This document shows positions 18,281-44,214 of a DNA stretch of 64,000 nucleotides, piece after piece. Origin of the DNA: Eledone cirrhosa (taxonomy: Eukaryota); contig OZ024744.1 in NCBI GenBank assembly GCA_964016885.1, positions 90,396,001 to 90,460,000 of the forward strand. The letters run 5' to 3'. Under the pieces are notes generated by a model, which saw nothing but the letters and a program-made list of their open reading frames with translations, did not search any database and had not been told where the DNA came from. Position numbers and translations under genes: made by a program. The stretch's first letter is position 1, and every line of letters starts with the position of its first letter.

Positions 18281-20494
18281 TTATTGTTGACGAGAGCGGC
18301 GCTGTTGACCTTGTTCTTGTTGTTGTCGGTAGTGTCGGTGGCGGTTTTGGCGATGCTGAAATTTTGCTTCGCCACCGCCACCTCCGCTAGAAGCAATACT
18401 AGGGCCACCACTACCGTGATCGCTATCACGGTGAAGGCGGCGTTGATGCTGATGGTGGTGTTGTTTCTGAGGATGATGCTGCTGCTTCTGTTGCTTATGT
18501 GACGCGTATTCGTCATCGGCAACATCATCAGCAGCAGCATCAACAACTACATTGGGACCGGCGTCGGTGATCATTGTTCCATCGGCATCAGCAGCAGCAG
18601 CATCAGCATCAATACGAGAACGTGGAGGGAGTGGTGGTGGCGTTGGTGAAGCTGAGGAGGAGGTCAACTGTTGTTCTTGTTCTTGTTGAGTCACAGGTGT
18701 CGCTTCCACCACATAACCACCATGTCTTCCACCATTGTCATTGTGGTGGTACTGCTGGTCGCTATGACGACTACGATGATGTTCTTTGTGCTCATCATCA
18801 TCGTCGTCGTCGTTATTATAGTAATCGTAATAGTCATCGTAATCATCGTCAATGTGTATGTCAGCATCGTCGTAGTCATAAAACTCCCCGTATTCCGCTT
18901 CATCATGCTCCCCCACACCCGGTGGCACAGTCTGTTCATTACGGCCGATTCGGCCATGGCGAGCAGCACGCATGAGTAAAGCGTAGACCTCTCGATGCCC
19001 GCTCTTCAGTGCAACGCGCAGGGGTGTCCGACCGTAGCGGTCAGCGCGAGACGGGTCGGCGCCCCGCGCAAGCAACGCGCGCACCACGCCTGCATGTCCC
19101 TCCTGGGAGGCAACGCACAATGCTGTCGCTCCCTGGCTACATGCGCGGTCCACGGCAGCTCCCCGCCTCAGCAGGGCACGAGCCACGGCCGCGTGTCCAC
19201 GCCACGCGGCCGATTGTAACGGCGTGCGCCGCTCGTTGTCAGCTGCATCTAAATCTGCTCCGCCCACGTCTGCGAGCAGGCGCACCATGTCGACGTGGCC
19301 TTGCCAAGCAGCTACGTGCAGTGCCGTCCGACCTTCCGGATCTACGCCCTCCACATCTGCACCATTGGCCAGCAAAAAGGCGGCCATACGCACGCGGTTC
19401 TCTAGCGCCAGCACATAGAGTGTCGAGCGACCATCAGCATCACGGTAGTTCGGATCGGCCAAACATCCAGTACCCAGGATTGAACCTAGTGGACCAGCAC
19501 CACCACCACTACCACCGGGACCACCAACACCACCAGGACCACCAACACCACCACCACCACCACCACCAGAACCACCAGCGCCGCCTCCAGCAACACTACC
19601 AGCCACACCGTAGCTAATAGGTCCGCCACAATGGCGCTGTTTTCTCCTGGCCGGAAGCGGCACAGCAGCGGAGGCGACTGTGGAAGGGGTGGGGGAAGCG
19701 GTAACGGCGGCAGACAATGTGGAAGTGACAGCGGCGGCAGCAGTGAAAGCAGAACTAGTGGCTGGGTCAGTGGTGGCAGAAGAAGCAGGGTTCCGATGAC
19801 GAGCTCGGATTGGGGAGCGTCGACGCGGCGGCAATGGTGGAGGCGAGGGGGAAAAGTTACGACAGGTGTCTGCCTCTTCGTTCGCTCCTGGCACTCGATT
19901 TGGCGGCGGCGGCGGTGAGTGTGAGTGCTGCGAAGGCGAGTGCAACTCGGAATCTGGGTCCAACTGCAAATGGGAGTGAGGGTGTGAGTGCGAGTGCAGC
20001 TGTGAGTGAGACGGCGATTGTGTGGGCGAGTGCGATGGCGAGTGGAGCAACAGCGTCTCTGGTGAGTGGAGTGCTCGGGAGTGCAGCTGTGACTGAGGGT
20101 TGGGGTGGGGAATGTAACCACGTCGACGGCGTCGACGAACACCAAGCTGCGGTTGCGTCGGTGGGGAGGGAGAATACGGCTCACCATCCCCACCCTCTGC
20201 TACACCCCCACTTCCCCCTCCTCCTCCACCGACCATGATGAGGCCGCAGCCTCGTTCTGGTGGATAGGGGTGTCCAAGAAGCAAAAGGCTGGCCACAGCT
20301 TCATGGCCCTCCAAGCAGCTGACTCGCAGTGCTGTCTTGCCGTCATGCGAACGCTGATCCACGCTAGCACCATGCCGCAGTAGACCTTCCACTACAGAGA
20401 GATTCCCCTCCTGGGCCGCTAGGATAAGGGCATGGCGGCCGTCATTATCTGTTTCATTCACCTTTGCTCCATGCTCAATCAGGATGTCACAGAC
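18281..20494 (-). CDS. ANKRD50: ANKRD50-like last coding exon (737 aa + stop): C-terminal ankyrin repeats and low-complexity tail
   Basis: Acceptor tttctgtttatttgcag|GTC at 20495/20494. The splice gives EGHRK|VCDILIEHGAKVNETDNDGR, completing an ANK repeat. DADGRSTLYVLALEN, RTPLQSAAWRGH and QGATALCVASQEGH match ANKRD50. Confidence 0.9.
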   Translation of the reverse strand, partial: VCDILIEHGAKVNETDNDGRHALILAAQEGNLSVVEGLLRHGASVDQRSHDGKTALRVSCLEGHEAVASLLLLGHPYPPERGCGLIMVGGGGGGSGGVAEGGDGEPYSPSPPTQPQLGVRRRRRRGYIPHPNPQSQLHSRALHSPETLLLHSPSHSPTQSPSHSQLHSHSHPHSHLQLDPDSELHSPSQHSHSPPPPPNRVPGANEEADTCRNFSPSPPPLPPRRRSPIRARHRNPASSATTDPATSSAFTAAAAVTSTLSAAVTASPTPSTVASAAVPLPARRKQRHCGGPISYGVAGSVAGGGAGGSGGGGGGGVGGPGGVGGPGGSGGGAGPLGSILGTGCLADPNYRDADGRSTLYVLALENRVRMAAFLLANGADVEGVDPEGRTALHVAAWQGHVDMVRLLADVGGADLDAADNERRTPLQSAAWRGHAAVARALLRRGAAVDRACSQGATALCVASQEGHAGVVRALLARGADPSRADRYGRTPLRVALKSGHREVYALLMRAARHGRIGRNEQTVPPGVGEHDEAEYGEFYDYDDADIHIDDDYDDYYDYYNNDDDDDDEHKEHHRSRHSDQQYHHNDNGGRHGGYVVEATPVTQQEQEQQLTSSSASPTPPPLPPRSRIDADAAAADADGTMITDAGPNVVVDAAADDVADDEYASHKQQKQQHHPQKQHHHQHQRRLHRDSDHGSGGPSIASSGGGGGEAKFQHRQNRHRHYRQQQEQGQQRRSRQQ

Positions 20495-21430
20495 CTGCAA
20501 ATAAACAGAAATTTATATCATACACACATATATATATATATAAACATACATATGCATGCATTCAAATACCATATATAGTTGTATATGTGTGTATGCATGT
20601 GCGTGTGTGTATGTGGTTTCAGATTTAGGCACAAGACCAGCAATTTGGAGGGAAGGGGAAAGTCGATTAAATCGATCCCAGTGAATTACTGGTACTTTAT
20701 TTTATCGGCCCCGGAAGGCTGAAAAGCAAAGCTAACCTCAGCGGGATTTGAACTCAGAACACAAAGGGACATAACTCTACGCATGGTGTCCAACGCTCTA
20801 CTGATACTGCCAATCCGCCACCCTTTAATATCGAATAACAATATTTGATTCATTTACAAGCAAACAGCCTCATTATGCTATGTTTTATAGATGACCATTG
20901 CCATCCTTTTGTTCTAATGGTGACAGAGAGAAACAATCAGTAATTTTTCTCTGAGAAAAATTACAGAGTCAATAAAATAAAGTACCAGTCACACACTGGG
21001 GTCAATTTAATCGATTTGCCTCACCCCAAAAATTTCTGGCCTTGTGCCTAAATCAGAAACCATTATACTTTTATGTAATAGACTGAGTTAAGTTAGTTTC
21101 CGAATAATATCTTAATATTGAGAAAGTTAGTTATTTTATTAAATCCATCCAAATTCTTGATTATCTATATAAAAATTTCTGCGATTCTGTCACAACAAGT
21201 TTAAGAGAGAGGAGTAGTTTGACTACCTCATACTACTCCTCTCTTTTTCCGTCAACAGCCTGCATTAATGTATGTGTGTGTAAAAGTAAGGAAGTGGGTG
21301 GTGAAAAAACTTTAGCAAAATAGGGGCTGCCGTTCCATTTGTGTAAATGTGTGTATGTGTGAATGTATGTCTGTGAGTGTGTATTTTTGTAAGTGTGTCT
21401 GTGTTTGCGCATTTATATTTATAAACCCAT

Positions 21431-22765
21431 ATACAAGCCATGTATAAAGAAACGGTCTGCAAGGTTAGAATTAACAACGAATATAGTGAAGAATTTAGCG
21501 TAAAAGTTGGTGTCCATCAGGGCTCTGTCCTTAGCCCCCTCTTATTTATATTGCCCTTCAGGCTATAACAGAGGAGTTCAAGACCAGCTGCCCATGGGAA
21601 CTTCTCTATGCAGAAATTCCATTTTATGTCCCAAATGCAAAGTATGGGTGCATAAAAGATGTAGTGGGATCACAGGTAAGCTATCTAAGAATGTAGATTT
21701 TATATGTGGCCGGTGCTCAGGTGCAATAAGTAGCAAGTGCCCACAGGATACTAGCTCCTTCTATTGCCCAGATGGCTCTATAGAAATAGTGGACACCTTC
21801 CGTTACTTGGGTGACAAAATCGGCAGTGGTGGAGGGTGCTCTGAAAGTACAGTAGCTAGAGTCAGAACGGGATGGAAAAAGTTCAGAGAGCTTATACCAC
21901 TACTGGCCGCTAAAGGTTTCTCTCTAAAAATGAAAGGCAGGCTGTATGATGCCTGCATACGAACAGCAATGTTGCATGGCAGTGAGACCTGGGCATTGTG
22001 TGCAGAGAATTTGCGCAGACTGGAGAAGAACGAAGCTTGCATGCTCCGCTGGATGTGTAATAGTAATATACGTGATCGGCAAAGCATAAACGAACTAAGG
22101 AAAAAATTAGAAATAAGAGGGATTAGATGCTGTTTACACGAGAGAAGACTATGTTGGTATGGTCATGTGATGTGCATGAAAGACGAGAGCTGTATAAAAA
22201 AGTGCAGGGCGATCAAAATTGACGGAAGTTACGGAGTAGGTTGACCAAGAAAAACCTTGGACAATTTGATAAATTCCGACCTTACACACTTACACCTCTC
22301 TAAGACAATGTCACTGGACTGAGATCTTTGGCGCTACACAGTAATACAGAAAACCTGCCTTGCCTAAGTACAAAGCGAAACCTACAGTCAGTAGGCACCG
22401 CTTAACCAAAAATACACCCCATCCCACTACCCCTACTCCATCCTCCCACTCCCACCAACACCACCCTTTCTCTGTAAAGTTATGGTGGTACTACAACATC
22501 TTGTCCAAACTAAAGAGGTCGTGTAGGTGTCACGACAAAAAAAACACACAGTCCATGCTGTAATGTGGCCGTGTAGGTAACACGGTAAAAACCTCCCAGT
22601 CCCACACTGTAAACGTGGTTGGTGTTAGGAAGGGCATCCAGCCGTAGAAAACCTGCCAGACAGTCCTATATGAGGGAGACGACCATTCTTGCCTCAAGTG
22701 GGAAAATTCCTGTCTAAACTCATGCTAGCGTGGAAGATAGACGTTAAACGATGATGATGATGATA
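21431..22765 (+). mobile_element. 5'-truncated RTE LINE copy (same family as 56573-63640) with an internal deletion, in intron 2
   Basis: Near-identical translation (ILCPKCKVWVHKRCSGITG..RLEKNEACMLRWMC). CPWELLYA is joined to RNSILC at ~21614, losing ~190 bp that include the catalytic DD. (GAT)n tail. Confidence 0.9.
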
Positions 22766-22930
22766 ATAATATAAATGTATGCACATGCACAAACAAACAA
22801 ACGTGTCAGCGTGTTGAAAAAAAATCCTAGTTTTGAAAATTATTGGAAAAATCATAGGCTGTATATTTCAATAGAAGTATTGTACGAACAAGATAAATGT
22901 AAGAAAAAAAAAAATGAACCGGTCTCTCAC

Positions 22931-24778
22931 CTTTCTGTGTCCCTCATATGCAGCCATGTGTAACGGCGTCCATCCAGCATTATCCTTGTGCATTTCATCC
23001 AGACCTCGCTCCAGCAAAAGTCCCACAACGTCCGCATCACCCTGGGCGGCAGCTACGCTCAGCACGGTACGTCCTTCCCCATCAATGGCATCGACTGCAG
23101 CGTTCCAGTAAAGCAACTGACGAACAACACCTGCACGTCCAGCTGCGGCAGCTGCCAACAGTGGCGTGCGTCCAGCAGTGTCAGCGGCATCAACATCTGC
23201 ATCCCATTCTAAAAGCAGCTCACATGCCTCTTCGCGACCCTCATGAGCGGCCACCAGTAAAGGAGTGGCACCGTCAAGGTCTCTGTGATCAACAAATGCC
23301 CCTCGAGCAAGCAGCAATGCTACAACTGCGTCGTGGTTTTGACTCTGGTATTGCTGTTCTTCCTGTGCCATGCCATTGCTGACGGCAGCGGAGGAGGCAG
23401 TCTGGTGAGAGTAGCTTTGGCCGTGTTCTTGTCGGCCAAAAGCATTTGCTTGTCCTTCCCTTTGACTTTCTAGTTTGCCTACACTGTCCACCACTTCACC
23501 CTCTGTACCAACGTCATTGTCACTGACGATGGGGTATTTTTTTTTCCCCTTCATTTCCAGCCCTGCTCCTGGCTCTAAACATTCCCCTGTACCATCTTCA
23601 TCATCTTGTTCATCCCCATCATGAATATTTACATTCCCAAGCTGTGTATCATATTCACATTCATCAGCATCCTGGTTGATGGTTCCAGGAGAAACAAATG
23701 CAACAAAGCCTGTGCCACAAAGTGAAGCAGCCACAGATAAAGCGGTTCGGCCGTCAGCATCCTCGTGATCTACAGAGGCACCAACATCGAGGAGATGCTC
23801 CACGATGGAAGCATGTCCCATGTATGCAGCAGCAATGAGAGCAGTCCGTCCCTCGCTGTCACAGCGGTTCACATCAGCGTGGTGTGCAAGGAGACATCGA
23901 ACAGCAGATTCTCGGCCACCCCATGCAGCAGCACGCAGTGCCGTTCGTCCACCAGCGTCACAACGGTCAACCTCAGCACCAGCGGCCAGTAATGCTTCAA
24001 CAACACCAGTATGGCCACCCCAGGCTGCAGAACGGAGAGGTGTCCAGCCATCATTATCGGCCACATCGGTGAGCCCTGTAGCTTGTGGTGACTCCAGAAG
24101 CACTTTCACCACTGCCAGATGTCCCTGACGAGCAGCTATATTTAGTGCAGTCTGGCCATAGGCATCTGAAATGCAAGGATCAGCTCCAAGGTTGAGCAGG
24201 TCAGCAGTAGCTTTTGCATCTCCACGTGCTGAGCATTCATGCAGTATAGCAGAAATGTCTGCAGCTTCGTTGGTGGTCACATCAGTTGTTGCTATACTAT
24301 CTATTGCTTCTCCGCCGCAGCGGAGCTGCCTGAGTCTTTCCAGCGTTGCATTCAGCCGATGTTCGTATACGAAATCTTCGGCATCATCATTTACAAGAGA
24401 TACACGCCCATCCTCTGCTCTTGTCTCAGCTTCTAATTCACAACGCATGTTGATGCCAGTGGCAGTGGTGGGGCTAGCATTGGTGCTGGTGAGGTTGTTA
24501 TTGCTACCAGTAATACCACTGAAACCGAGATCATCATCGTCATCGTTGTTGTTATTGTTGTCACGGTTACGACTGGATGACATAGATGGAGTTGTCGTTG
24601 CCAGAGGAGGGAGTGGTTGGGAAGTTGCTGCTGCAGCCGAGATGGACATTTCATCAAGGAAAACACCATGAGACAAGCTATCGGTTTGGCTACAAGGGGA
24701 CACCCCTGTAGTACCAGAGCGATGGTGTTTGTGGTCATTGTTGTTGTTGGTGGGATTGTTTGTCATAGATTTATCATG
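22931..24778 (-). CDS. ANKRD50: ANKRD50-like coding exon 2 (616 codons): N-terminal ankyrin repeats
   Basis: Acceptor t(15)attgcag|CAT at 24779/24778 and donor AGA AAG|gtgaga at 22931/22930, both phase 0. ANK repeats [53 protein letters not shown] are typical of ANKRD50. Confidence 0.92.
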
Positions 24779-24872
24779 CTGCAATAAAAAAAAAAAAAAA
24801 GAGAAAATATAATAGAAGTGTGTGCCCGAACATGCTATATATATATACACACATATATATATATATATAAAG

Positions 24873-25264
24873 AGAGAGAGAACACATATGTTTCACATGA
24901 GTAAAAAGAATAGAAATCAATAAACATGTAGAATACACGGTAACTTTTGTTAACATATATACACTAAGAGAAATGCGTCGGTTTTCTACTAGAGTAAGTA
25001 TGTGTATGTGTATGTATTTCCTAATGCGTTTATCAATCTATACAAATGTATGAAAAGGGACAACGACAGAGAGAGAACACATATGTTTCACATGAGTAAA
25101 AAGAATAGAAATCAATAAACATGTAGAATACACAGTAACTTTTGTTAACATATATACACTAAGAGAAATGCGTTGGTTTTCTACTAGAGTAAGTATGTGT
25201 ATGTGTATATATTTCCTAATGCGTTTATCAATCTATACAAATGTATGAAAAGGGACAACGACAG
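24873..25264. repeat. 195-bp tandem duplication near the exon 2 acceptor
   Basis: aacacatatgtttcac at 24881 and 25076; only a few substitutions between the copies. Confidence 0.92.
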
Positions 25265-25299
25265 TTTTTTAAATGTAAATGATATGAACTCACTAAGTC

Positions 25300-25813
25300 A
25301 ATGGAAGCCCATGAAGTGTGGTGACCCAGGAAGACTTAGGACGAGGTGATAAAAGCTGACCTTGCCCAATTGCACCTCTCAAAGGTCATGACACAAGAGT
25401 GAGATCTCTGGTGTTATGCAATAATACAGAAGACCCAATTTCTCACAGGCACACGCGGAAGTTGAAGCATATATATATAGAGTATGCCCAATCCACTCTC
25501 ATACATCTCCCATGAGGACAAGTTGAAGTATACATCCAGTGAAGCCATCAGCCCACACTATAAAGTGGTTGCGATGGCAAAACGACAAAAGCCACCCAGT
25601 CCACACTGTAAAGTGGTCGTGTAGGTGTCACAACAAAAAGCACCCAGTACTCACTGTAAATGAGGTTGACGCCAGGAAGGGCATCTAGCTGTAGAAACCA
25701 AGCCCAAAACAGTTCTGTATAAGCGGAGCATGGCCACCTGACCTGGCATTGTTCATGACAGGATAACTCGTTTAACCCATGCTAACATGGAAAAATGGAC
25801 GTTAAACAGCAAC

Positions 25814-25852
<39 letters not shown>
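25300..25852 (+). mobile_element. Old RTE 3' end with (GAT)n tail
   Basis: Decayed PRKT.DEVIKADL..DLWCYAIIQKT followed by the shared ggaagggcatc..tagaaa..cccatgct..gacgttaaa (GAT)n tail. Confidence 0.7.
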
Positions 25853-26429
25853 ATATACATTTATGCATTAAATTATGATATATATATATATCTCATAATT
25901 TAATGCATATATGTTTGATAGTGGTTCAAGTAAATTAAGAAGAAAATTATTGTAATTAATTTAAATGAATGTAAAATGAAATATGTTGATTGCCAAAGTG
26001 ACAAGAGAGGAAAGGTCAAGGAAAACATGAAGATTCAAACATTTATATATAGAATAATGTAACCAAGGAATCATCAAATTAAAATATCTTTTTTACTGCA
26101 GTTAACGTCATTTTCAACAAGTACAATGTTAGTATATGTATTTATATACTCTTTACTAAATGGAAGACTGACAATATATATGGATGGCTTCCACAATTTC
26201 TGTCTATCAAATATAAATTGGATGGCTTCCACAATTTCTGTCTATCAAATCTCACACTAAAAATCTTGAGTTATCAGAAATTGTGGTTGGATAAATGCTT
26301 TATAGAATTTGTGCATGTACCTATTATATTTCTTTGCACTCATGGCAGCTTTCTCTTACAAAATCATTTTTAAAAAATCATCAGCAGACATATATATATA
26401 TAGCTTCAGCCAAAACTATCTGTCTGCTG

Positions 26430-26481
<52 letters not shown>

Positions 26482-26693
26482 TATACATACATTAATATAC
26501 AAACATCTAACTGTTTATATATCTACCTACCTATCAGTCTATATGTATATTTGCCAATGTATCTATCTTCAGACAAGAACAACAATAACAACAAATCACA
26601 AGATCTTTGAAGAACATATATGAATTATGAATATATGAGAGAGAGAGGAGGGGGGGGGGGGAAGAAGCAGAAGAAGAAGAAGAAGAAGAAGAA

Positions 26694-26738
<45 letters not shown>

Positions 26739-27109
26739 CACCATCATTATTAAATGGATAAGTGTTTCAAAGAATGACTGTAAAATGAAATACATCAATA
26801 GTTAGAGTGACAAGAAGGAGACAGTTAAAGAAAATCAAGGAATTATTATATTAAACTTTTACTATAAATTACATCATTTTTGATGGGTATTATGCAGTTT
26901 CAGATTAAATATTGATTTACAATGGCTTTGTCCCTTATTGGGACTTAACACAATTAAACATTTTATGAGCAAATGTCTAAACATATTGTCTCACCACACA
27001 ACATTTTTAAGGAGTATGAAGTGTTTATTATAATAAATTACCATATTTTGAGCTGTTTTACTTCTCCGCCCACTTCTTTCCAATTTTTATATTTAAAAAC
27101 ATAATTCTT

Positions 27110-27136
27110 TATATATATATATAAAGAATATGTATG

Positions 27137-27178
<42 letters not shown>

Positions 27179-27187
27179 GATACATAT

Positions 27188-27234
<47 letters not shown>

Positions 27235-27455
27235 TACATATATATATATACACATATACACACATACATATATATATATACACATATACACACATACATA
27301 TATATATATATACACATATACACACATACATATATATATATACACATATACACACATACATATATATATATATACACATATACACACATACATATATATA
27401 TATATACACATATACACACATACATATATATATAAATACACATATACACACATAC

Positions 27456-27486
<31 letters not shown>

Positions 27487-27489
27487 TAC

Positions 27490-27520
<31 letters not shown>

Positions 27521-27691
27521 TACATATATATATATATACACATATACACACATACATATATATATATATATACACATACATATATATATATATACATATA
27601 CACACATACATATATATATACACATATACACACATACATATATATATATATATATACACATATATATATATACACACATATACACACATAC

Positions 27692-27722
<31 letters not shown>

Positions 27723-27771
27723 TACATATATATATATACATATACACACATACATATATATATACACATAT

Positions 27772-27812
<41 letters not shown>

Positions 27813-27955
27813 TATATATACACATATACACACATACATATATATATATATACACATATACATACATATATATATACACACATACATATATATATATACA
27901 CATATACATACATATATATATACACACATATACATACATATATATATACACACAT

Positions 27956-28002
<47 letters not shown>

Positions 28003-28005
28003 TAC

Positions 28006-28038
<33 letters not shown>

Positions 28039-28087
28039 TACATACATATATATATATACACATATACATACATATATATATACACAT

Positions 28088-28136
<49 letters not shown>

Positions 28137-28177
28137 TATATATATATACACATATACATACATATATATATACACAT

Positions 28178-28248
<71 letters not shown>

Positions 28249-28395
28249 CACATATATATATATATACACATATACACACATACATATATATATATACACA
28301 TATACATACATATATATATACGCACATACATATATATATATACACATATACATATATATATATACACATATACATACATATATATATACACACAT

Positions 28396-28442
<47 letters not shown>

Positions 28443-28445
28443 TAC

Positions 28446-28478
<33 letters not shown>

Positions 28479-28535
28479 TACATATATATATATATACACA
28501 TATACATACATATATATATACACACATGTACATAC

Positions 28536-28570
<35 letters not shown>

Positions 28571-28573
28571 TAC

Positions 28574-28606
<33 letters not shown>

Positions 28607-28650
28607 TACATATATATATATATACACATATACACACATACATATATACA
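27110..28650. repeat. 1.5-kb compound (TA)n/(CA) microsatellite with the higher-order unit CACATATACACACATACA(TA)n
   Basis: Directly visible, almost purely alternating purine-pyrimidine. Confidence 0.97.
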
Positions 28651-28859
28651 TGGAAGACTGACATTATATATATATAAATTGGATGGCTTCCACAATTTCT
28701 GTCTATCAAATCTCACTAAAAATCTTAAGATATCAGAAATTGTGCTTGGAAAAATGTTTTATGGAATTTGCTGATGTACCTATTATATTTCTTTGCACTC
28801 ATAGCGGCTTTCTCTTGCAATATTATATAAAAAAAAAAGCCTCATGTGGATAGATTTCA

Positions 28860-29150
28860 CAAGACCATATAAATGGTGTACTCTGAGTATGGCTGAACGA
28901 CAAAGCAGGGACGAGTTGAGAGAGAAACTGTGTATAAGAGGAATAAACTGTAGTGGACAGGAGAGAAGACTGCTCTCCTATTGGTATCGCCATGTGATGC
29001 GCATGGAGGATGACCACTGGGTGAAGAAGTGCCAAGTAATCCCAGTGGAAGAAAGATGCAGTAGAGGAAGACCACGGAAAACATGGGCGGAGGTGGTGAA
29101 GACCAAAGTTCGCAGAGGAGTGGACAAAAGATTGTGACAAATGGAGAGAT
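28860..29150 (+). mobile_element. RTE C-terminal fragment
   Basis: ELREKLCIRGI..WYRHVMRMEDDHWVKKC..RGRPRKTWAEVV. Confidence 0.75.
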
Positions 29151-29152
29151 GC

Positions 29153-30152
<1,000 letters not shown>

Positions 30153-31497: not shown

Positions 31498-31528
<31 letters not shown>

Positions 31529-32199: not shown

Positions 32200-32733
32200 C
32201 AAAAGTAAAACCCATGTTATGAGAATCTCCAACAACATCTTATATGGCAAGGGGAAGCAAATCATGGCCAAGAACAGCTATGCCATACTGGGCTGGAGAT
32301 TGGGCCTTCTGGGTGGTGCAGACAACTGTGGGTGTACAGCAGACCTCTCAGATTCAGCAAAACAACCAGAAATCATCAGAAAGAGTGGTTTGAGGCCAGA
32401 TATCATACTCCATTCTAGGTCATCAAAACAGTTCATTTTGATTGAACTTACTGTGCCATTTGAAAGTAGATTAGAAGAAGCACACATATTCAAGACTGAA
32501 AAATATGCCAGTTTGGCCAACAGCTTGAGGGAAGCCGACTTCCGAGTCAATGTTCTCACCATAGAGGTTGGAGCCAGAAGCTTTGTGGGCAATTTCTCTA
32601 CAATCATATGAAACAACTTTCAGTGTCTAGGAAGACAAGGACCAAAGCCCTAAGGACAATATCAGAGGCAGTAGAAAGGATTTCTAGCTGGATCTGGTCG
32701 AAGAGGAACAAAACCAACCTCCACACCATGTGA
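32200..32733 (+). mobile_element. 3' fragment of a REL-endonuclease non-LTR retrotransposon (HERO/NeSL-like)
   Basis: LRPDIILHS..FILIELTVPFE..EEAHIFKTEKY..EVGARSFV, then ALRTISEAVERISSWIWSKR in a shifted frame. Confidence 0.8.
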
Positions 32734-32899
32734 GAGGCACCGTGTTTGTATTTTAATGGTTTGTGGTGTTGGTGACAATATCAGCAATACTGTTGATGTC
32801 TCACCACATCCATGGCTACCAATGTTATTTTTCCAATCCAAGAAAGTGTTTAAGTCTACCCCTTTGTTTACACTTATAGCTACAGGGTAGACCAATTTG

Positions 32900-33600
32900 G
32901 TTGCCAGTGGCTCATTAGTGAAGTGGTTAATACCCTCGCTTGACACCTGAGAGACGTGGGGGTTCAATTCCTTGCATGCACCTCTGTCCACGTTTTTCTC
33001 TATCTTCAGTTGTACTAAACTGACTTTCTCAACTAATATTTATAGTGGTTGACTATTATGATGGTCACTTACGTTGGGGTGCACACATGTTTCAAATTTT
33101 TCTAATGCTTCATAACTTTTCACTTCTAGCTACAAAGACGGAACTAATAGCCAGTGACTGTTTAGTGCAATGGTTAACACTTACTTGGCATCCAAGAAAT
33201 ATGGGTTTTGATTCCTTGCAGGCACCTTCCTACACATTTATCTGTCCCTAGGGGTACTTTACCCGATTTTCTAAACTATTATTTATAGTGATCAACTATT
33301 ATTATGGGACGCACACATTTCTAATGTTCCCACTGTTCCTCAAGTCAACCACTTTGTTTATGCTTCTAGTTACTGGCTTAAAATTTTCTAAAAAGATGGA
33401 ACTGGTGGCTGGAGAACTTTCACCTGGCATCGAAGAAATGAAGGGTTCAATCCCTTGCATGTGCCTGTCCACATTTTTTCTATCTCCAGGGGTACTTTAT
33501 CTGATTTTCTCAACTATTATTTATAGTGATCGACTATTATTATGGGACACACACATTTCAATTTTCAAATCTTCCTGATGATTAATAAGCCAACCTCTTT
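32900..33600 (+). repeat. About three tandem ~240-bp units with degenerate tRNA-like heads
   Basis: ttagtgaagtggttaa..ggggttcaattcc at 32916-32972, with similar heads at 33160-33215 and ~33420-33455 and the shared body actattatttatagtg..actattat..gcacacattt. Confidence 0.6.
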
Positions 33601-33696
33601 GTTAACACTTCTAGATACAATAAGACATGGAGAACACCATAACCCTCATATACTTTGTGCCTTATACATAAATATGTGAATGAAGAATTTGCCTAC

Positions 33697-36600
33697 CTTT
33701 CCAGGAGTTTTGCCACTCTCTTCATGATGTTCTTCAGTAAAGTGTACAGGTCTGTCAGATAATTTCTGAAAACTGCTAGCATCAATTCTACCATCGGATC
33801 TTCCTTTAGTAGAGGCAGTATCACTGAGGATGTCATCAATACCATCAACACATGTGTCACCGTCGTCTATGTAGTGATTGTCGTCAAACTGTGTGTCACT
33901 GTCAAGGTAATGAGTGGCATGGTCAGTGTCAACGTTCCTGTCAGCGCAGGTGTGTTCGTTATCATTGTCGTGATAGTGAGTCTCATCTACAATACAACCA
34001 CCAATGTCAACATGATGATTGCATGAGCAGTGGTCATATTCGCTGTCAGATGTTTCGTCAGGAGTGGGTTTCGAAGCTGTTGCTCCTGCATCCACGAGAA
34101 GACGAAGGAGTCTCTTGTCGGCGGGGCTGCCTATTCGCAAGCAGCCTTCCAGGTTGACACCCGATGCTAAAAGCCAAAGTACAAGGTGTTCATGATGAGT
34201 CATGTGACTCTGCAATGAATGTTGCTGTTGTTGTTGTTGCTGTTGTTGCACTTGTTGGCTGTTGTAGTGTTGGTGTTGATGCTGGTATTGTTGCTTGAGA
34301 TGTAGAAGGCGATGTTGTTTTGTTGTGTTTATTGGTGTCGGTTTTGTTTTGGGTTCTGAGGTGGAAGATGTTGTAGGGTTTGTAGTGGCAAGGTTTGCTT
34401 TATGGACGGATGAGGAGACATCATGGCAGGGTGGTGGTGGGACAAGTACAGCATCGTTAGCTATATCCAGTATATCAGCAGGATTGGAGCCTGTGGTGGT
34501 TTGATTCATCAGGAACGGGAGGGAAGTGGATGCAGTGGCAGTAACAGTATTGCTTGCAGAGGTAGTAGTGGTGACCATTGATGAACGTGTAACACCACTG
34601 GTGGCTGCATTTACCATTGCTGCTGTTGTTGTTGATGTTGTGGTTATCCCTGGGGGAGGAAACTTGGCCTGAACAAGATGCCAACCAAGTTCTTGAACCT
34701 CAGCTGCAGTCAGCCAGCCACGACTACGACCACATACCCGACCAGATTGACATCCGACACCATTGACTTTTTTAATCAACCCTAACTGGCCATTGCCTGG
34801 CATCAGAGATGGACATTTGCCAGGTACCATGAGTGATGTTGAAGCCAACATGGCCATGGCCAGTGCCCCATGACCTTCACCGGCTGAACACAAAAACCTT
34901 GGTGTACAGTGTTTCACATCAAGAAGCCATTCGGCGAAACTATGATGGAAAAATATGCATGCCGGCGAGCTTTCATAGGACTGTGTTGAAGAGAGATACT
35001 GATAGGGTTTGTTACTGCAACACATATGGTAGTGATTGTGTTGTTGTTGTTGTTGTTGTTGTTGGGGATGGTGGTGGTGTTGATTTTGGTGATGTTGATG
35101 GTAATGTTGCTGTTGTTGTTGTTGTTGTTGTTGTTCGTGGTAGTGTTGTTGTCGATGATGTGAAACAGCCATTATCGATGTTGTGATTGGCTTTCTACTC
35201 TCTCCCCTTCTACTACTTTCTCCTAATCTTACCTTCCCTCTTCTTACTTCTCCCATCTCTTCACCCCTTGCTGGTGCTACTACCTCCCCCAATCTATTTT
35301 CTCCGCTTCTACTATCTGCCCTTAATACTGCTGTTCTCCGTTCTCCTCTCGTTACGGACACTGACAATGGGTTAACACCAGGCACTGATGTTTTACCATC
35401 ACCACTGAAAGTCAGGTCAAGGTTAAGAGCTGACCATGATGACGAGAAATTTGATGACAAAGAAAACTTGTTGAATAGCTGACACTGACAAGGACAATGG
35501 TGATGGCAATGATTATAACGATGGCTCTTACAATGGTTATGACGATAAGGATGATGACTATGATGGTTGTGATGGTAATGGTGATGATTGGGAGGTGCTT
35601 TCTGCACAGATGAAGTAGCAGCTGTGGTTGTCGTAGTGGTGGTGGTGGTGACGATGGTGGTGACAAAGGATGATGCACTGTCAGAACAAAAACACGAAGA
35701 ACGAGAATGGGGAGAAGAACAACAATAGCAAGAGGAACTACGATCAGGCTTTGGCACCTGACTTGCTGTTTGGGCAAGAGGAAGTTCAGCGTCACATTGC
35801 CCAGATTCCTTCGGATTGGTAATGCCTAGCCCCTGGAAGGCGCTTTGCTCAACATCTTCAAGGTTGCCTATGCCTCTTGGATGGATGGGACCAGCATTGG
35901 GTTGTACATGGCCAGAGCCATTTTCTTCCTGGCCTCCAGCATTTCTGAGCTTGGCAGAGCTAGACTCCACATGGTTATGCTCTGTATTTCCAACACCTCT
36001 GAGTTGGTCAATGCTAGTCTCTATCTGGTCATGCCCACATTCATCTAAACTACCAATGGTTCCTGCTTGTGTAGAATGTGACTGCATGTGACCATGCCTG
36101 TCTTCTTCCAAACTCCCAATTCTTCTTAGCTGGGCAGCACGAGATTTTAAGTGGCTACGCCCACATTCTGCTAAATTAGCTTGATCTACCATTCGAGTGG
36201 GCCGAGGCTCAAGGCGGCAACGCCCATTTTCCTCTAGACTGCCCATGGATCCCCGCTGGGAATGGCACTGTTGAATGCGCTGACGCATGACTTCCTGCAG
36301 AACTTCTACACCACCCTCTCCTCCCACGCGGATACCAACAAGGAGGCGTGAGAGTGAGGCAAGACGGCGCTCAAAGTCACGGCGGGTGAGATTGACATCA
36401 CGCACAGTGGCACACAGATAAAGCTGGTCGATAGACAGGGGCCGTGCAGCAGCAGCAGCAGCTGCAAGCACGGCATCAAGCAGAGGGCGGGCTTCAGCAA
36501 AGCGACGTGGTGCATGGGAAAAGCGACGCTGGCAAAGCCATAAGTAAAGGCCATTAAGTGTGGGTGGAATGTGGCGCACTTCTGCCAGGCTTACCGAGCC

Positions 36601-39600
36601 ATCAGCGACCCCATCAAGCACCGTTTCCAGATAGAGCATACAGCCGTTGCTCTTGATGTGCAGTTGGTTGAGTGTGTGTGCCGCCTGCCGACTAAGGTGG
36701 CGACGCAGTGCCGGCTCAGCATCAAGTCGACACAGGATGTAACGTTGAACATCACGCACTACATGTGACCGGCGGAGATCGTCAAGCGCAATGCGACGCA
36801 AGCCAGAACCAGCAAAAAGTTTTGTCACAGTTTTGCAATGCTCGCGTGCTGAGCATAATAGGAATAACCAATCAGGAAAGAATGATCGTGTGGCAGCTAA
36901 TAACTCAGCAATCGTACTAACACCTGGGTTGGCTGTAGGCATTGATGTTGAAGATGAGGTTCGAACTCCAGACATTGATGGTGTGGACACAGTAGCTGCA
37001 TTTTCTATTGTTTGTGGTGTTGAGATTGGCTTTCGAATTCCAGGTGCAGTAGTGTACATTGCAGTTGTTTTGGTTGTTGTTGTTGTTGTAGTTTGAGATG
37101 TTGAGATTCGCATTGCAGGGGAAACAGGTGGAGTTGAAGTTGCTTTTGTTTTTTCTGTTGTTTCGGGAGTTGTTGAGGCTGAGTTTCGAATCCTGGGCAC
37201 AGATGGAGATGCTGCTGTTTTTGCTGTAGAGGTTTGAATTCCAGAAGCTGCTCTTGTTTTAGCTTGTATATCTGAGGTTGATGCTCGGTTCCCAAGTACT
37301 GCTCTGCTTTTTGCTGTTTTCCCTGAAGCTGATGAGGCTGGGTTTGGGATCCTGGATGGAACGAATGTTTTTCCTTTTGATTCCGAGGCTGATGCTCGAA
37401 TCCCGGATTGATGTTGTCGCCGGCAAGGGCTAGCCCTTGTCCCAGCTTCTGTTTCTTTGTTGTCATCGTGATGGTGGCGATGGTTCACTGCTTGACCTGA
37501 GCTCGGTCTTTGAAAATGGCGTGGTTGCTGTTGTTTTTGTTGCTTTTGTCGTCGGTGAGAAGGGCTTGTTTCTGTTTCCTCATCGTCATGGTTTGCTGAC
37601 TGACTTGAACTGGGTCTATGAAGATGGTGGCGTTGCTGTTGCTTCTCACCATCTCCATCTTTATAGCAATAATAATAATAATCTTCATCATCATCATCAT
37701 CACGATAATAGGAACTGTTGTCTTCCCCTTCTTCTGCCATCAGCGAACGTTTCGATTTGAGTTTACCAATCTTCAATTTTTTCGTCTCTTCATTTTCTGA
37801 CTTCTTCTCTTCTTCATCATGATAATAACAATAATAATCGTCATTTTCATCAAAATCCTCATTATCTTTTGCATTTGACACATGCTTTGGTTTCTCTTTG
37901 TTCATTGCCAGACCTTTCTTTTTCTCTTCATCTTCTGTCACTTTTTTTTTGTCTTCATCGTGATAATTATAATAATAATAATCTTTTTCTTCATAATACT
38001 CATCATCATCATCATTATTATCATATTTTGCATTCGGCAAACGCTTCACTTTGTCCTGGCTCATTTTCAGGTTTTGCTTTTTCTTATTTTCTTGGTCTTC
38101 TGTTTTCTTTTTCTCTTCTTTCTTCTTACTATCATAATAATATTCAGCATCAGCATCATCTTGACTATCTTTTCCAACTGCCAAACGCTTTACTTTGTCT
38201 TGGTAAATTTTCAGCATTTGCTTCTTCTTTTTAATTTCTTGTTCCTCCGTCTTTTTCGTTTCCTCTCTCTTCTTTCTCTCGCTCTCTAAATAATAATAAT
38301 AATTGTCGTCATCATTATAATCATCTTTCAAACTTGACAAATATTTCACTTTGTCCCGGTCAATTTGCAGCTTCAGTTTTCTCTTTTTATCTTCTTCTTC
38401 CTCTACCTTCTTATCATCTTCTACCCTTTTTATCCTAACATCTTCTTCATCGTCCTCAATATCATCGTCATCATAATAATAATCACAATAATCGTTATAA
38501 TAATCGTTATATTCCTCTACATTCAGCAAATGTTTTGTTTTGACTTCCACCGCCTTCTGCTTTTTCTCTTCTTCTTCGGCCTTTTTCTTCTTCTTCCTAT
38601 CATCATCGTCATCCTCGTCATCATAATAACCAGCACTATAATCACCGTAATCATCCCATACACTACTCTTTTGTTTATTTTTGCCATCTTCTACACCTGT
38701 CTTCTTTTTGCCGCCATTATCATCATATAAATATTCATCATCATAGTTGTAATCACCTTTACTATCATCATAACAATCTTGTACTTTCGGCAAATGTTTT
38801 GTTTTTTCTGCCAACATCATCAGCTTCCTGCTAATCTCATCTTCTTCTTCTTCCTCTGTTTTCTTCTTTTCCTTTTTCTTACTATCATAATAATGATCCT
38901 TGCCCTTAAAATCGTCATAAACTTCATCTAAATTCTGCAAACCTTTCACCACTTTATGGTCAACCAGTTTTTTCTTTTTTGCCTTTTCTGCTTTATTCTT
39001 ACCATCATCATGATCATCAACAATGTCCTCATTATAATCATCACCATCATCATAATTTTCACCTTTATAATCCTCATAATCACCGTCTACATTCTTCAAA
39101 CTTTTCAGTTTATGCTCACCCATTTTCAGCCTGTTTGTTTTCTCATCTTCTGTTTTTTCTTTTTTCTTCTTCCAGCCTCCATCATAATAGCTCTCCCCTT
39201 TACAATCATCATAGTCGTCTTCAAAATTCTGCAGACGTTTCACTTTGTAATCCACCATCGTCAGTTTCTCTTTCTTTTTCTTCTCCTCATCCTTCTTTCT
39301 ACCACTATAATCATCAAAACTTTCAGCATAATCATCTCCTAATTTTGCCAATCGTTTTACTTTGTCGTCCACCACCACCGGCTTCTTTTTGCTCTCTTCT
39401 TCTGCTTCTTCTCTTGTCTTCTTCTTTCTACTATCAATACAATAACTAACCTGATCCTTATAAATGTCGTAATCATCCTCTAAATTATGAAAATGTTTCG
39501 CTTTACCCTCCGTCATTTTTATTTCGTCATTAACATCTTCATCTTCTCCAAGTGCTATCTTCTCCTTTTCAACATCACCAGCACCACCACCACCTCCACC

Positions 39601-42600
39601 TCCACCACCACCATCACCGTCATCATCATAATAATTGTTATTGTCACCATTACCGTTACCATGACGACGATCGCAACAGTAACGGGGGTGACCATGAGGA
39701 CGATGATGATGAAGACGACGATGATGGTGATGATGATGATGATGATGATGGTTAGGGTCATCATATGGGTGTTCGCATTCACCACCCCCTCCCACTCCCA
39801 CGTCAATGCTGTTATTGTCATCAGTTTGATGATGACTGTGATGCCCATTTTCGTGATGGCAGTTTCCCTGGTGAGGATGATGATGATGATGATGATGATG
39901 ACGATGATGGTAGTGATGATGATTATAGTGGCTGTGGTGCTGACGACAACCACTATCATTCTGTCCTAGCTGATGTCGATGGTGGTGATGATGATGTTGA
40001 TGTTGCAGTGGTTGTTGTTGTTGTTGTTGCTCTTGAAAACTGCTATCATCAACAGCACCAACACTAACATCATTGGGGGATGCTAGCCAGCCAGGACGCA
40101 GGAAGGATTCATCAAGGGCGTCAACGATTAGGAGGAGGCTGTGTGGGGGTGGCGACACAAGTGTGGAAAGTGGCAACAGCACAAGACGACGAAATGCCTC
40201 AACGGCATTGCTCTCGATCATCTCTGCTTGAAGGTAGGCAGCCGTTGGCAATGTGTGGTGGTCATTGTCACTGCTACTGATACTGGTCATGTTGTTAGTA
40301 CAACCTGTTGAGCAACTGCCACCACAGCAACCCCAACAAGCTATACTGCTCCTTTTTCTAATATTTTCCCTCCTTGGGGTTGACACTGTGTCGTTTTCCA
40401 CCTCCTTGTTATCTCTCTTCTCCTTGATTAACTCTGTTTTCTCTTCAAAAACCATTAACGGTGCAGCAGTCACTGCCAAGTCGTCAGAATTGGAAGCAGA
40501 TGCTCTAGCAACAGCTGCGGTAATTGAGTTTCGAACTTCCTCATCATCTTTGAGATAGTGATAGCTATTGTTATCTTCTTCTAGGCTTGAAGGCACTTGT
40601 TCTCCAGCTTTCTTTTTCTTTTCCTGTTCTTTGTCCTTTCCTTGCTGCAGCTTGTCCCTTTTTTCATTTACTTCCTTCTTTACCTGCACCTTATCCTTCT
40701 TTATTTTTTTCTTCTCCTCATGATCCATTTCTTTCTTCGCCTGTAACTTATCCCTCTTCTCTTTATGCTCTTTCTCCTTCTCCAAAGCCTTTGTAACTTG
40801 CACTTTGTATCTTTTCTCAGTCTCTTTCCTTTTCTCATCTTGTGCCTTGATCCTCTTTCCTAACATCTCTTTTGCTGACAATGCTAACCCTTCCCCAGAT
40901 GATGTCTGTGTTAGTGGTACTGAAACATCTTTTGTCTGAACATGATCGCCGCCAGCATTAGTTAACCCTTTCAAGTTCTTACTACTACTACTACCACCCA
41001 ACCTCTCTTTCTTGTTCTCGTTACAAATCTCACTCTCACCAGGCACCCATTGGCTGTTGTTTTGACCATGTCCGCTCTTCCGTGTTACGCACAAACCAAG
41101 AGCAGCAAAATCGCTAGCTCTAGATGCATCCTCAAACCCTACTTTCACATCAACCCCTACTCCGGTGTCTTGATCATCATAATCATGTCTATTTTCCAAA
41201 ACAAAATAATCCCTTGTTCCAAATAACAACTCATCATCATCATCATCTATTTCTTCTTTGTTGTTTGCTCCTTGTTGTCTTTGCTCATGTTCTTCACTCT
41301 TTCCACATTGTTTTACTGGCGGCATTGTTTCCACTGCTTCACCTCTACTTCTTGCTGCCGGCATGGTGACTGCTTCTTCATTACCATAGTCACCATCTCT
41401 GTCGTTGTCGTCGCCGTGGTAACAACGGCGAACGGCGATATTTTGATCGTCGTGTTGTTTTTCTGCTTCTTCTTCTTCTTCTTCTTCGTTTTCTTCGTTT
41501 TCTTCGTTTTCTTCTTCTTCCTCCTCCTCCGCCCCGCGATAATCGTCATCGTTCACATTATGGCCGCAATAATAATAATATTCAGCATCGTTATTACTGT
41601 TGTTGTCTTTGTCTTCGTCATTATCATTATCATCATCATCATCATCGTCATCGTCATTGTCATCTCTGTTGCTACAGCAACAAAATCCACAACCAGCACT
41701 ATAACAATTATAACTACTACTACAACTACCAACACCGCCGCCACCACCGCCGCCGCCACCACTGTAACCAACGCCGTCTCCACCTCTACCACAGCAAGAA
41801 CATGCCATCTTGTCGTCAAGTTCTTCCATGGCATGTTCGAGAAATTCAGCGTAACCCTCAACTAGATTAGATCTCCTGAGCTGCTCAACTATGCTCAACA
41901 CAAAGCCAGATAGAGACAAGGTGCGTGCATCGTGCGCTTGACAGAAGTGGTAGGCGAGCACGCGCCTGTTTAAGGTGTGCTGTCGCTTTGTTTTGCCCTC
42001 CTCAGGTGGAGCCACTGTCCCTGCCACTAGCGGAGGCGGTGCGACTGCGGAGCCAGCCAAAGTGGTGCGAACTGTTGTTGTTGTTGTTGTTGTCGTCGTC
42101 GTCGGTGGCACTGGTGGTGCCAGTGCCACCGACGTAGCAGCGGTCGTGCTGACAACAGGTTCATGCTGCCACACGTTTGGCGGCGGGAGAGGCGAGGAAA
42201 CAGTAGAGGGCGCCTCTTGCTGTACCGGCGGGGGCAGCGGTGCTCGTGATGGTGGCGGCGGTGACCTCTGTAGTGAGCTTGGGTTAGTTGTATCGTCATC
42301 ATCGTCTTCATCGTCGTTATTGTTGTTGTTGTTGTTATTGTTGTTATTGTTATTGTTGTTGTTGTTGTTGTTATCATTGTTGCTGTTGTTGGTCGTGGTG
42401 GTGGTGTTGTTATAGCAACGCCAGCGCCGACAGCAGCAGCAACGCGAAGGCACACATGACCTGTGAGGGCGAGGATGAGCGTGAGTGTGAGGCTGAGGTT
42501 GAACAGGAGTCTGGGGTTGAGTATGGATGTGAGTTTGAGCGTGATGAGGGTGACTGTAAGGTTGAGTGTGATTGTGACTTGTATTATTCCCTGTGGTGGG

Positions 42601-44214
42601 TTCAGAGGTAGCAACAGACGTTGCCCTGGGGCTGGCGTTTGGGGTGGGCCTCGGATCATCAGCTGGAGATGTGGTATTCATGATGAGACCTTCATTATTT
42701 CTTGCTGATGTTGTGGCATTCATACTGAGCTCATCATTGTTATTTGTTGGTATTGTAGTGTTCATACTGAGGTTATTGTTTTTTGGTGATGTTGTGGCAT
42801 TCATGCCAGGTTCATCATCATTGTTGTTTGCTGCTGTGGAATTGATGCAAAGGTTAATGTTTTTAGGGAATGTTGTCGTCTTCATGCTTGAGTCATCATT
42901 GTTGTTTGGTGATGTTGCGGCGTTCATGCTGACATCATCATTGCTCTTTGGTGATGTTGTGTGCTTTATGTTTTGATCGTAGTTGTTGTTTGTTGATTTT
43001 GTGGTGTTCATGCTGAGATCATCATCACCGCTTGTTGTCTTTGTAACTGCATCTGCTGAAACACAGACAAAGGTAGGGACACAACTGGTATTGAAACCAC
43101 GTCCTCCTCCTCCTCCACCACCACCACCACCTCCATCTCTTCTTCCTTCACCTCCTCCTCCTCCTTCTCGTTGTTGTTGCCGTCGTCCTTGCCCTTCTTC
43201 CGATCCCCTTCCACTAATACCACCTGCTAGATTTGAAACCGCAATCCGGTTTCCATCTCTGTCTCTATCAACACCGGATCCACTACTAACATCACCAGAT
43301 CCACCATTAACATCGACAACACTACTACCAACAGCTGGACTTGAAACTGGGATCCGAGAGCCAGTATCTCTATTTCTACCAGATCCAATTCCGCTATCAC
43401 CATCAATGGAGTTGAATCGGTTCCCAGGGCCATGCGTGACACCTCCGCCAACAACTGGATTAAAAACTTTATTTCTTGTGGATCCGATACCACTGTCTCC
43501 ATCATTGGAGCTGAATCCAGGACGATAAATGACATTACCAACACCACCAACACCGACAGCTGAATTTGAAAGCGTAACCTGAGTGTCTCTGTCTCTACAT
43601 CTACTGTTTCCAATACCACTATCTCCATCATTGGAACCAAATCTAGCACCGGATCCACCTGCAACACTAACAACACCAGATCCTGTCCCAGAAACAGCAC
43701 TGCTGCCTAGAGCTGGGTTTGAAGCTGCAGCCCGTCCATCGCCGTCTCTATCCCTGTCTCGAGTGGACCCAATACCACTATCTCCATCGTTGGAGCCAAA
43801 TCCAGCTCCAGATCTAATTCCAGAACCATAACCAATACCACCAATACCAACATTGCTCACAGCAGGATTTGAAACCATGATCCAGCCATCTCGGTCTCTG
43901 CCACTGTCACTGTTTGAACCTGTGGATGCAGCAGTAACACCAGCTGGCCACACTAGTTCACAGAGCAGTGCAGACTTCCCACATCCGGCTCCACCAGTGA
44001 CTAGCACACCACCTCCTGGGGCTGTTGACGCTGCTGTCACCAGTGCATGTTCCCCTCCAGAACGGGGTCTGGCTTCGATTTCATTGCTACCACGAGCAAC
44101 CACCACCGACGATGAAGATACTGCCCCCTCGTGTCGTTCAAGTGAACTGAGGATTTTTGCATAGGCCCATTCACGCCCGTAGAAGCGCTTGCCTTGGAGA
44201 AGGCTGTGAGACAT
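33697..44214 (-). CDS. ANKRD50: ANKRD50-like protein, first coding exon (3,506 codons): STAND/NACHT-like NTPase region split by giant low-complexity inserts
   Basis: Colinear blocks match recalled ANKRD50: SLLQGKRFYGREW; Walker A GVLVTGGAGCGKSALLCELVWP; LAYHFCQAHD; EAFRRLVLLPL..LLIVDALDE (Walker B); FFPDWLFLLCSAR; LDDLRRSHVVRDVQRYILCRLD; LNQLHIKSNGCMLYLE; TLNGLYLWLCQR; FHHSFAEWLLDVKHCT. Donor GGA AAG|gtaggc at 33697/33696, phase 0. Confidence 0.9.

Follow-up and report, generated by a model that had tools for sequence, protein, structure and literature searches.

A window of 64,000 nucleotides (nt) from Eledone cirrhosa (assembly GCA_964016885.1, contig OZ024744.1, positions 90,396,001 to 90,460,000; C28:90.40-90.46 Mb in a 3.0-Gb genome) was analysed and found to carry, on its minus strand, an apparent ANKRD50 gene composed of three phase-0 open frames with canonical AG/GT ends, with a predicted spliced product of 4,859 amino acids (aa) and 530 kDa. 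An earlier sequence-only reading of the window had proposed three such exons, including a stop-free exon of 10.5 kb, and this was confirmed by the frames, the AG/GT ends and the exon lengths, all of which are divisible by 3. In window coordinates, the exons are:

44214-33697, minus strand: exon A, 10,518 nt (3,506 codons) from the ATG at 44214 to the GT donor at 33697; NTPase, lid and winged-helix blocks, seven complete inserts and the opening half of an eighth
24778-22931, minus strand: exon B, 1,848 nt; remainder of the linker insert, ankyrin repeats and a 122-aa insert
20494-18281, minus strand: exon C, 2,214 nt; ankyrin repeats, a 270-aa insert, a divergent 230-aa tail and the stop

All conserved blocks of a normal ANKRD50 are present and in order (NTPase, AAA_lid_TANC1, HTH_TANC1, ankyrin array). 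Pfam recognised AAA_lid_TANC1, HTH_TANC1 (in two stretches) and ankyrin repeats in the window protein; the split NTPase itself went undetected by Pfam, with NPHP3_N/NACHT being detected only in a normal homologue, P0006. Both Walker motifs are intact and conform to the patterns GxxGxGK[ST] (A) and hhhhD (B). The main core blocks, with identities to the Argonauta hians protein described below, are:

43945..44010, minus strand: Walker A block, GGAGCGKS, 100% identical to Argonauta
40105..40218, minus strand: Walker B block, LLLIVDALDE
36520..36915, minus strand: end of the NTPase and AAA lid (PF25520), 97% identical to Argonauta

Combined, the Pfam matches, the alignment and the tree support the earlier assignment, and the gene is, judged from its sequence, the Eledone cirrhosa orthologue of ANKRD50. 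Two protein searches and one family search found no second ANKRD50 copy in the genome; the other lid match (L023:1213-2403, minus strand, at C4:151.19 Mb) belongs to a lid/winged-helix paralogue, presumably TANC, that is about 30% identical to ANKRD50s and has an NTPase region of normal length. A subtelomeric location of the ANKRD50 gene was considered and ruled out (90.4 of 136.5 Mb).

Relative to normal orthologues, the blocks are separated by net in-frame insertions of 34, 648, 527, 1,050, 453, 39, 150, about 260, 122 and 270 aa (about 3,550 aa in total), with more than 2,200 inserted residues falling inside the NTPase domain. The sequence-only reading had counted at least eight such inserts; the insertions are real, but their number is ten, as the inserts upstream of Walker A and in the pre-ankyrin linker had been missed. 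They are arranged as follows:

44011..44112, minus strand: insert 0, 34 aa, upstream of Walker A
41986..43929, minus strand: insert 1, 648 aa (Argonauta 574), with four DSGIG units, 14-aa tandem repeats, a Cys cluster and poly-N/T/G
40249..41829, minus strand: insert 2, 527 aa (Argonauta 454), acidic, containing a 23-residue invariant island
36946..40095, minus strand: insert 3, 1,050 aa (Argonauta 995), after Walker B, with degenerate K/D/E/Y tandem units of about 50 aa
34957..36315, minus strand: insert 4, 453 aa (Argonauta 330), in the wing hairpin of the winged-helix domain
34717..34833, minus strand: insert 5, 39 aa
34201..34650, minus strand: insert 6, 150 aa
24248..34071, minus strand: insert 7, about 260 aa net, in the linker leading to the ankyrins, split by the 8,918-nt intron 33696-24779
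23345..23710, minus strand: insert 8, 122 aa, in an irregular ankyrin loop
19460..20269, minus strand: insert 9, 270 aa, P/S/G-rich, within the ankyrin array

The inserts are mutually unrelated in make-up, and no Pfam family was found in the four large ones at E<=1 or in the exon A inserts at E<=0.01; an Atlas search with insert 3 likewise returned no match. DSGIGS-type motifs occur four times in the window protein, three times in the Argonauta protein and in none of 58 others, and the inserts also carry a CCCCRRWRC patch and PPLPPR sites. These three elements we take to resemble a beta-TrCP degron, a lipidation site and SH3 ligands, respectively, as putative assignments, and some islands of the inserts may by now serve in binding.

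The four large inserts each run through the coding frame without a stop, vs. 12-161 stops in the other same-strand frames, and dinucleotide-matched random sequence would be expected to hold 18-72 (minimum 7-50 over 200 draws); the openness of the inserts is more than chance. Every one of the 38 perfect exon microsatellites is a triplet repeat, whereas 75 of the 84 in the two introns are non-triplet, and the introns are full of dinucleotide repeats that are entirely lacking from the inserts. Within exon A, 19 internal DNA duplications were detected, 16 with an offset divisible by 3; they include units of 42/84 nt in insert 1 and about 150 nt in inserts 1 and 3. BLASTP self-comparison detected no insert repeats; DNA self-comparison together with 4-mer counts did find repeats in insert 1, gave a marginal signal in insert 3 and was unclear for inserts 2 and 4. 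Against the rest of the genome, insert DNA matched only via simple triplet runs among the matches listed, with 40 others outside (38 of 2,556 candidates scored). That the inserts grew in situ, through triplet slippage and short tandem duplications in frame, is likely the simplest account, and the 4.6% microsatellite DNA given in a preprint on the Argonauta argo genome (10.1101/2021.11.08.467834) fits a slippage-prone background. Additionally, at least 20 of 42 homologues that are 770-940 aa long (including Patella and Paralvinella) are unbroken from the start and end just past the exon B/C junction, suggesting that the ancestral state was likely one exon of about 2.5 kb, that the inserts are not old introns and that the 8.9-kb intron within insert 7 is likely new.

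The retention of the inserts in transcripts was approached with four sequence runs of one study, none of which is on record as RNA. In the small run X1 (88 million letters vs. about 1,400), the alignment of record 1 starts at 34213 and stops exactly on the predicted donor, 33697, after which the record continues for 2,087 letters that are not on the intron, whereas contigs of X2 and X4 run past the donor into the intron, to 33516-33517; X1 is therefore likely RNA. By length alone, the 2,087 letters would correspond to exon B together with 239 nt of exon C. Among the matches listed, X1 pieces cover at least 8,899 of the 10,518 nt of exon A with 0 other letters and bridge at least 13 of its 14 insert borders, with one contig (35153-39565) spanning insert 3, the lid block and insert 4. 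Pieces of exon A were matched with 0 other letters by all four runs, and no skipping joints in exon A were seen among the joints listed, with 1,305 joints lying outside these. Contig depths in X1 of about 8 to 34 along exon A and one empty intron bin were not used as evidence. At the five insert borders scored, a consensus-like donor/acceptor pair was absent, the best acceptors having a pyrimidine share of 0.61-0.72 and the best donors 2-4 of 6 positions. Because the inserts lack coding-frame stops, their microsatellites are triplets throughout, splice signals are missing from the borders scored and X1 bridges 13 of the 14 borders in exon A, RNA-level removal is unlikely to be their main fate.

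A protein search at lengths of 1,933-6,152 aa matched two of 3,003 candidates, one a Chironomus protein and the other Argonauta hians GAB1604566.1 ('uncharacterized protein LOC115222487', 4,525 aa), an unstudied gene model that has inserts at the same sites as the window protein. The Argonauta inserts measure 34, 574, 454, 995, 330, 47, about 120, 284, 119 and 266 aa, those numbered 1-4 being 55-123 aa shorter than in the window. Identity in the core amounts to 92% over 1,034 aa (84-100% for the Walker A, Walker B and lid blocks, 93-99% for the ankyrins), whereas the inserts plus tail are identical at 54% of aligned residues and single loops at 35-62% vs. 16-25% in shuffles. Across the exon A part the alignment contains 119 indel events, and the frame in the window is never broken. 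Identical runs of at least 12 residues in the inserts and tail number 14 vs. 0.9 in shuffles, a count inflated by the alignment and by uneven mutation rates that hints at selected islands. On this shared layout, the origin of the inserts can be placed before the split from Argonauta.

Loop excess was measured in 267 other homologues, with 106-202 being measurable per site; the median was about 0, the maxima at the four big sites were 74, 301, 91 and 175 aa, and the largest expansion overall was 357 aa. At the insert-2 site, 8 of 158 other homologues carry an extra 128-301 aa, indicating that this loop grows in other lineages too. The sequence-only reading had described the sites as short in vertebrates, which held for seven tabulated proteins (excess 0-3 aa at the big sites) but not for an eel protein, P0045, with +91 aa after Walker B. 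Long loops are not common across molluscs either: all named bivalves and gastropods are normal-sized, as is P0006 (1,453 aa, with normal loops and a KKETPL end), and only the other octopod, Argonauta, has them. No named protein from squid, cuttlefish, Nautilus or Octopus was among the results of the homologue searches and a profile-free HMMER search. In a careful tree (LG+C20 on the core blocks, 34 of 119 rows), the octopod pair fell within the molluscs (99/98) on a stem of 0.77 with terminal branches of 0.05 and 0.035, and P0006, which may be from a non-octopod cephalopod, was its sister (100/97) on a branch of 0.11. A FastTree placement of the pair among arthropods (0.71, all 119 rows) was set aside in favour of the LG+C20 trees.

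Predicted structures are consistent with insertion into loops. In a model of the normal orthologue P0007 (predicted local distance difference test score 89.6), the nine covered insert sites lie at loops, turns or helix ends, with the insert 3 site in a low-confidence loop after the Walker B strand and the insert 4 site at the wing hairpin. An AlphaFold model of window 36930-34078 scored most core blocks at 81-96 and most insert residues at 24-48, and built the winged helix across the 453-aa insert, with winged-helix matches spanning both insert flanks (for example 6lui, Z 7.0, root-mean-square deviation (rmsd) 2.5, 70 residues). The top four VIA matches of this model were STAND proteins, with middling scores (Z 7.4-7.9, rmsd 4.1-6.2); structure searches with the normal orthologue gave ankyrin matches only. 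The earlier suggestion of a core folding around some 3,000 or more aa of disordered loops thus gains support from the models and from the conservation in Argonauta, with about 3,500 aa predicted to be looped out.

A second departure from the family concerns the C-terminus:

18284..18973, minus strand: divergent 230-aa tail, ending RRSRQQ, without FTQQ, NGIVTNP or the KKETPL PDZ ligand

A class I PDZ ligand, nearly always KKETPL-like, ends 140 of 154 homologues and neither of the two octopod proteins, both of which terminate in RRSRQQ and contain neither FTQQ nor NGIVTNP. A tail profile able to pick up pangolin, locust and horseshoe crab scored nothing on either octopod protein or in 221 kb downstream; an exact-pattern genome search for KKETPL-type ends gave six matches, none on C28, and a tail query gave no match. 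An SPxP stretch may be a faint remnant of the ancestral tail. SNX27 is retained, its PX exon lying on C3 (L039, 45.086 Mb; E 7e-28 to human SNX27), which the PX search found and searches with PF21273 and PF00788 did not, and a C12orf57/P_C10 homologue is present at C20:8.62 Mb (L068-L069). A gene that we take to be SNX17-like was also observed at C4:185.35 Mb (L025-L027). Human ANKRD50 is required for SNX27-retromer recycling (PMC4231307), binds FAM21, the SNX27 PDZ domain and VPS29 according to a review (PMC5577995), has C12orf57 as a predicted contact of its residues 1-505 (PMC13478489) and is mentioned as a member of a multivalent network (PMC11331091). The absence of the ligand in both octopods suggests that the direct PDZ link to SNX27 has likely been lost in octopods, leaving an endosomal ankyrin scaffold that would lack direct PDZ contact to SNX27. 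Of the retromer-SNX27-WASH assignment made earlier, family membership stands, while the motifs of the ancestral tail have disappeared, the PDZ ligand among them. An octopod-specific loss of the human VPS29 site was considered and rejected, since the segment (mammalian E1300) is vertebrate-only in the alignment and not alignable in invertebrates.

The reading favoured here, with a probability of roughly 0.8, is that one chain of about 530 kDa is made, its core folded as in other ANKRD50s and its inserts forming disordered loops that stem from a burst on the octopod stem and were kept mainly as harmless in frame. Ten predicted surface loops would have gained about 3,550 in-frame, low-complexity residues on that stem, growing in situ through triplet slippage and short tandem duplications that kept the frame, while selection removed stops and frameshifts and tolerated length. 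The inserts would stay in the mRNA and be translated, and the NTPase, lid, winged-helix and ankyrin parts would fold with the inserts hanging out.

Several points weigh against this account. The whole-chain product is a prediction from DNA, RNA-like contigs and models; X1 comes without an RNA record from the sole study found, and consists of contigs, which lose rare isoforms, with joints remaining outside those listed. The Argonauta protein is a gene model read without its DNA, so that hidden small introns are possible, and the 54% insert identity may be close to neutral divergence. The structural model covers the lid/winged-helix stretch, leaving out the NTPase domain with its three largest inserts; all its VIA Z-scores are below 8 with rmsd up to 6.2, a Foldseek search gave no match at E<=0.001, and poly-Q stretches in the inserts come out as confident helices. 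FastTree groups the octopod pair with arthropods, albeit with weak support, and the composition of the window protein is atypical in the tree alignment; therefore, the sister relation to P0006 needs care. A small last exon with a changed PDZ ligand, beyond the reach of the searches made, is also possible.

The alternative raised by the sequence-only reading, that the inserts are exitrons or retained introns spliced from most mRNA to give a normal protein of about 1,300 aa, would agree with all inserts being multiples of three (which is so by construction), with the genuine intron inside insert 7 and with the fact that skipping can go unseen in contigs. Exon A does hold six GGTRAG donor-like and two strong acceptor-like sites, but none at the borders, where the splice signals are weak and X1 reads across. 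The true introns are rich in dinucleotide repeats that the inserts lack, the inserts are open and alignable as protein in Argonauta, and the unbroken homologues suggest that the sites are likely not old introns; constitutive splicing-out was not seen, and this alternative is now improbable. Somewhat less improbable, though still unlikely, is that the long protein is made with a nonfunctional, split NTPase, the ankyrin part alone mattering while the N-terminal half decays. The long core stem (0.77 vs. 0.11 in the sister), the more than 2,200 residues inserted within the NTPase domain and the lost tail motifs would be expected from such decay, whereas the intact Walker motifs, the identity of the Walker and lid blocks to Argonauta (about as high as that of the ankyrins), the short terminal branches and the kept homologue of C12orf57, the partner predicted for human residues 1-505 (PMC13478489), argue for a maintained domain.

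Removal at the protein level, with translated loops being excised by protein splicing or cleaved by proteolysis and the core held non-covalently, is given a very low probability. Long, disordered, acidic loops would presumably be accessible to proteases and the DSGIGS motifs of insert 1 resemble a beta-TrCP degron, but the absence of any Pfam family from the four large inserts at E<=1 includes that of a Hint/intein domain, insert 3 had no Atlas match, and the inserts share no make-up with one another. An assembly artefact or transposon insertions can practically be dismissed: the region is repeat-rich and the searched runs may be the assembly's own samples, but an independent species has the same layout, four runs match pieces of exon A with 0 other letters, and among the matches listed (38 of 2,556 candidates scored) the insert DNA finds only simple triplet runs elsewhere. 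Apart from these rivals, a more far-reaching proposal is tentative and rather doubtful, namely that on the octopod stem, with its core evolving about 7 times faster than its sister, ANKRD50 lost its coupling to SNX27 and became a giant, disordered scaffold, the new loops of which now bear selected motifs (DSGIGS degron-like units, the Cys-rich basic patch, PxxPxR sites and invariant islands of 14-23 residues).

Elsewhere in this genome, the NTPase-to-winged-helix stretch of the distant paralogue aligns without large inserts, and five distant open reading frames (ORFs), 2,095 aa in all, hold 3 homopolymer runs; homopolymers are abundant in two neighbouring ORFs. One of these, a 532-codon ORF about 38 kb past the stop (L004:453-2048, plus strand, C28:90376453), starts with a weak match to the GCP60/ACBD3 Q domain (E 0.004), after which come about 450 residues rich in homopolymers; this suggests that a gene nearby is inflated in a similar way. 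The other, of 642 codons (L017:6500-8425, plus strand, C28:90252500), has no Pfam match and is possibly another inflated exon of the region. Upstream of the gene, triplet arrays of about 0.7 kb (GAT-type and AAC-type) with several open frames lie at C28:90511679-90512350 and 90536784-90537500. Further features of the window are:

27110-29807: degenerate 2.7-kb TA-type array in intron 1
24873-25264: two-copy tandem repeat of 195 nt (98% identity) in intron 1, adjoining the exon B acceptor
21504-22241, plus strand: PHD-finger-bearing fragment in intron 2, resembling the element at 56969-58324
56969-58324, minus strand: reverse transcriptase (RT) with a PHD finger, long interspersed nuclear element (LINE) type, the second RT of the window
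59694-63529, minus strand: LINE-type pieces, endonuclease and RT with zf-RVT

Provided that the full-length chain is produced, a single NTPase domain folds even though loops of 650, 530 and 1,050 residues separate its strands, lengths far beyond the maximum in the other homologues, which would provide a natural test of the loop length that a fold can tolerate. An ancestral exon of about 2.5 kb would have grown to 10.5 kb and acquired a new intron without transposons. The PDZ ligand is kept from vertebrates to bivalves and insects and is lost here while SNX27 remains, pointing to rewired endosomal recycling in octopods; should the tentative scaffold proposal be true, a STAND NTPase with more than 2,200 residues looped from a single domain would mark a new branch of endosomal sorting in octopuses. 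As a practical point, such genes carry an 'uncharacterized' label and their NTPase is missed by Pfam. The family was already known and the long Argonauta model already in NCBI under that label; the absence of the PDZ ligand in both octopods is new here. The literature search, which left most subscription journals outside its scope, found no papers naming both ANKRD50 and octopus and nothing relevant on octopus protein inserts or cephalopod exitrons.

Compared with known systems, the window protein shares with metazoan ANKRD50s the block order, Walker motifs, start position and place in the tree, and the intron at its exon B/C junction is common to other lophotrochozoan ORFs; it differs in its length (4,859 aa vs. 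a median of 1,411, range 1,014-2,241, for 154 near-full-length homologues), its ten inserts, extra intron, long stem and altered tail. Chironomus riparius P0002 and similar long insect-type ANKRD50s show an independent expansion at the insert-2 site (+238 in P0002), but with one NTPase loop enlarged, by at most about 300 aa, and with the PDZ-type end kept. STAND NTPases (APAF-1, NLRs and the archaeal STAND 6mfv) are the best structural matches of the lid/winged-helix model, although at middling scores, and nucleotide-driven switching of the window protein is putative. A further parallel is found in the low-complexity insertions of Plasmodium falciparum proteins, known in Dictyostelium too (PMC3749963), which similarly have a triplet-repeat origin, keep the frame and form loop-like or disordered segments in ordinary proteins, as predicted on the octopod side. 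Those insertions are described there as proteome-wide, Asn/Gln-dominated and, in Plasmodium, about 37 residues long on average, whereas octopod ANKRD50 has single loops of up to 1,050 aa, a mixed make-up, 14- and about 50-aa tandem units and a paralogue that is not inflated; the best reading is that translated loops around a conserved STAND/ankyrin core were inflated to an extreme degree on the octopod stem.

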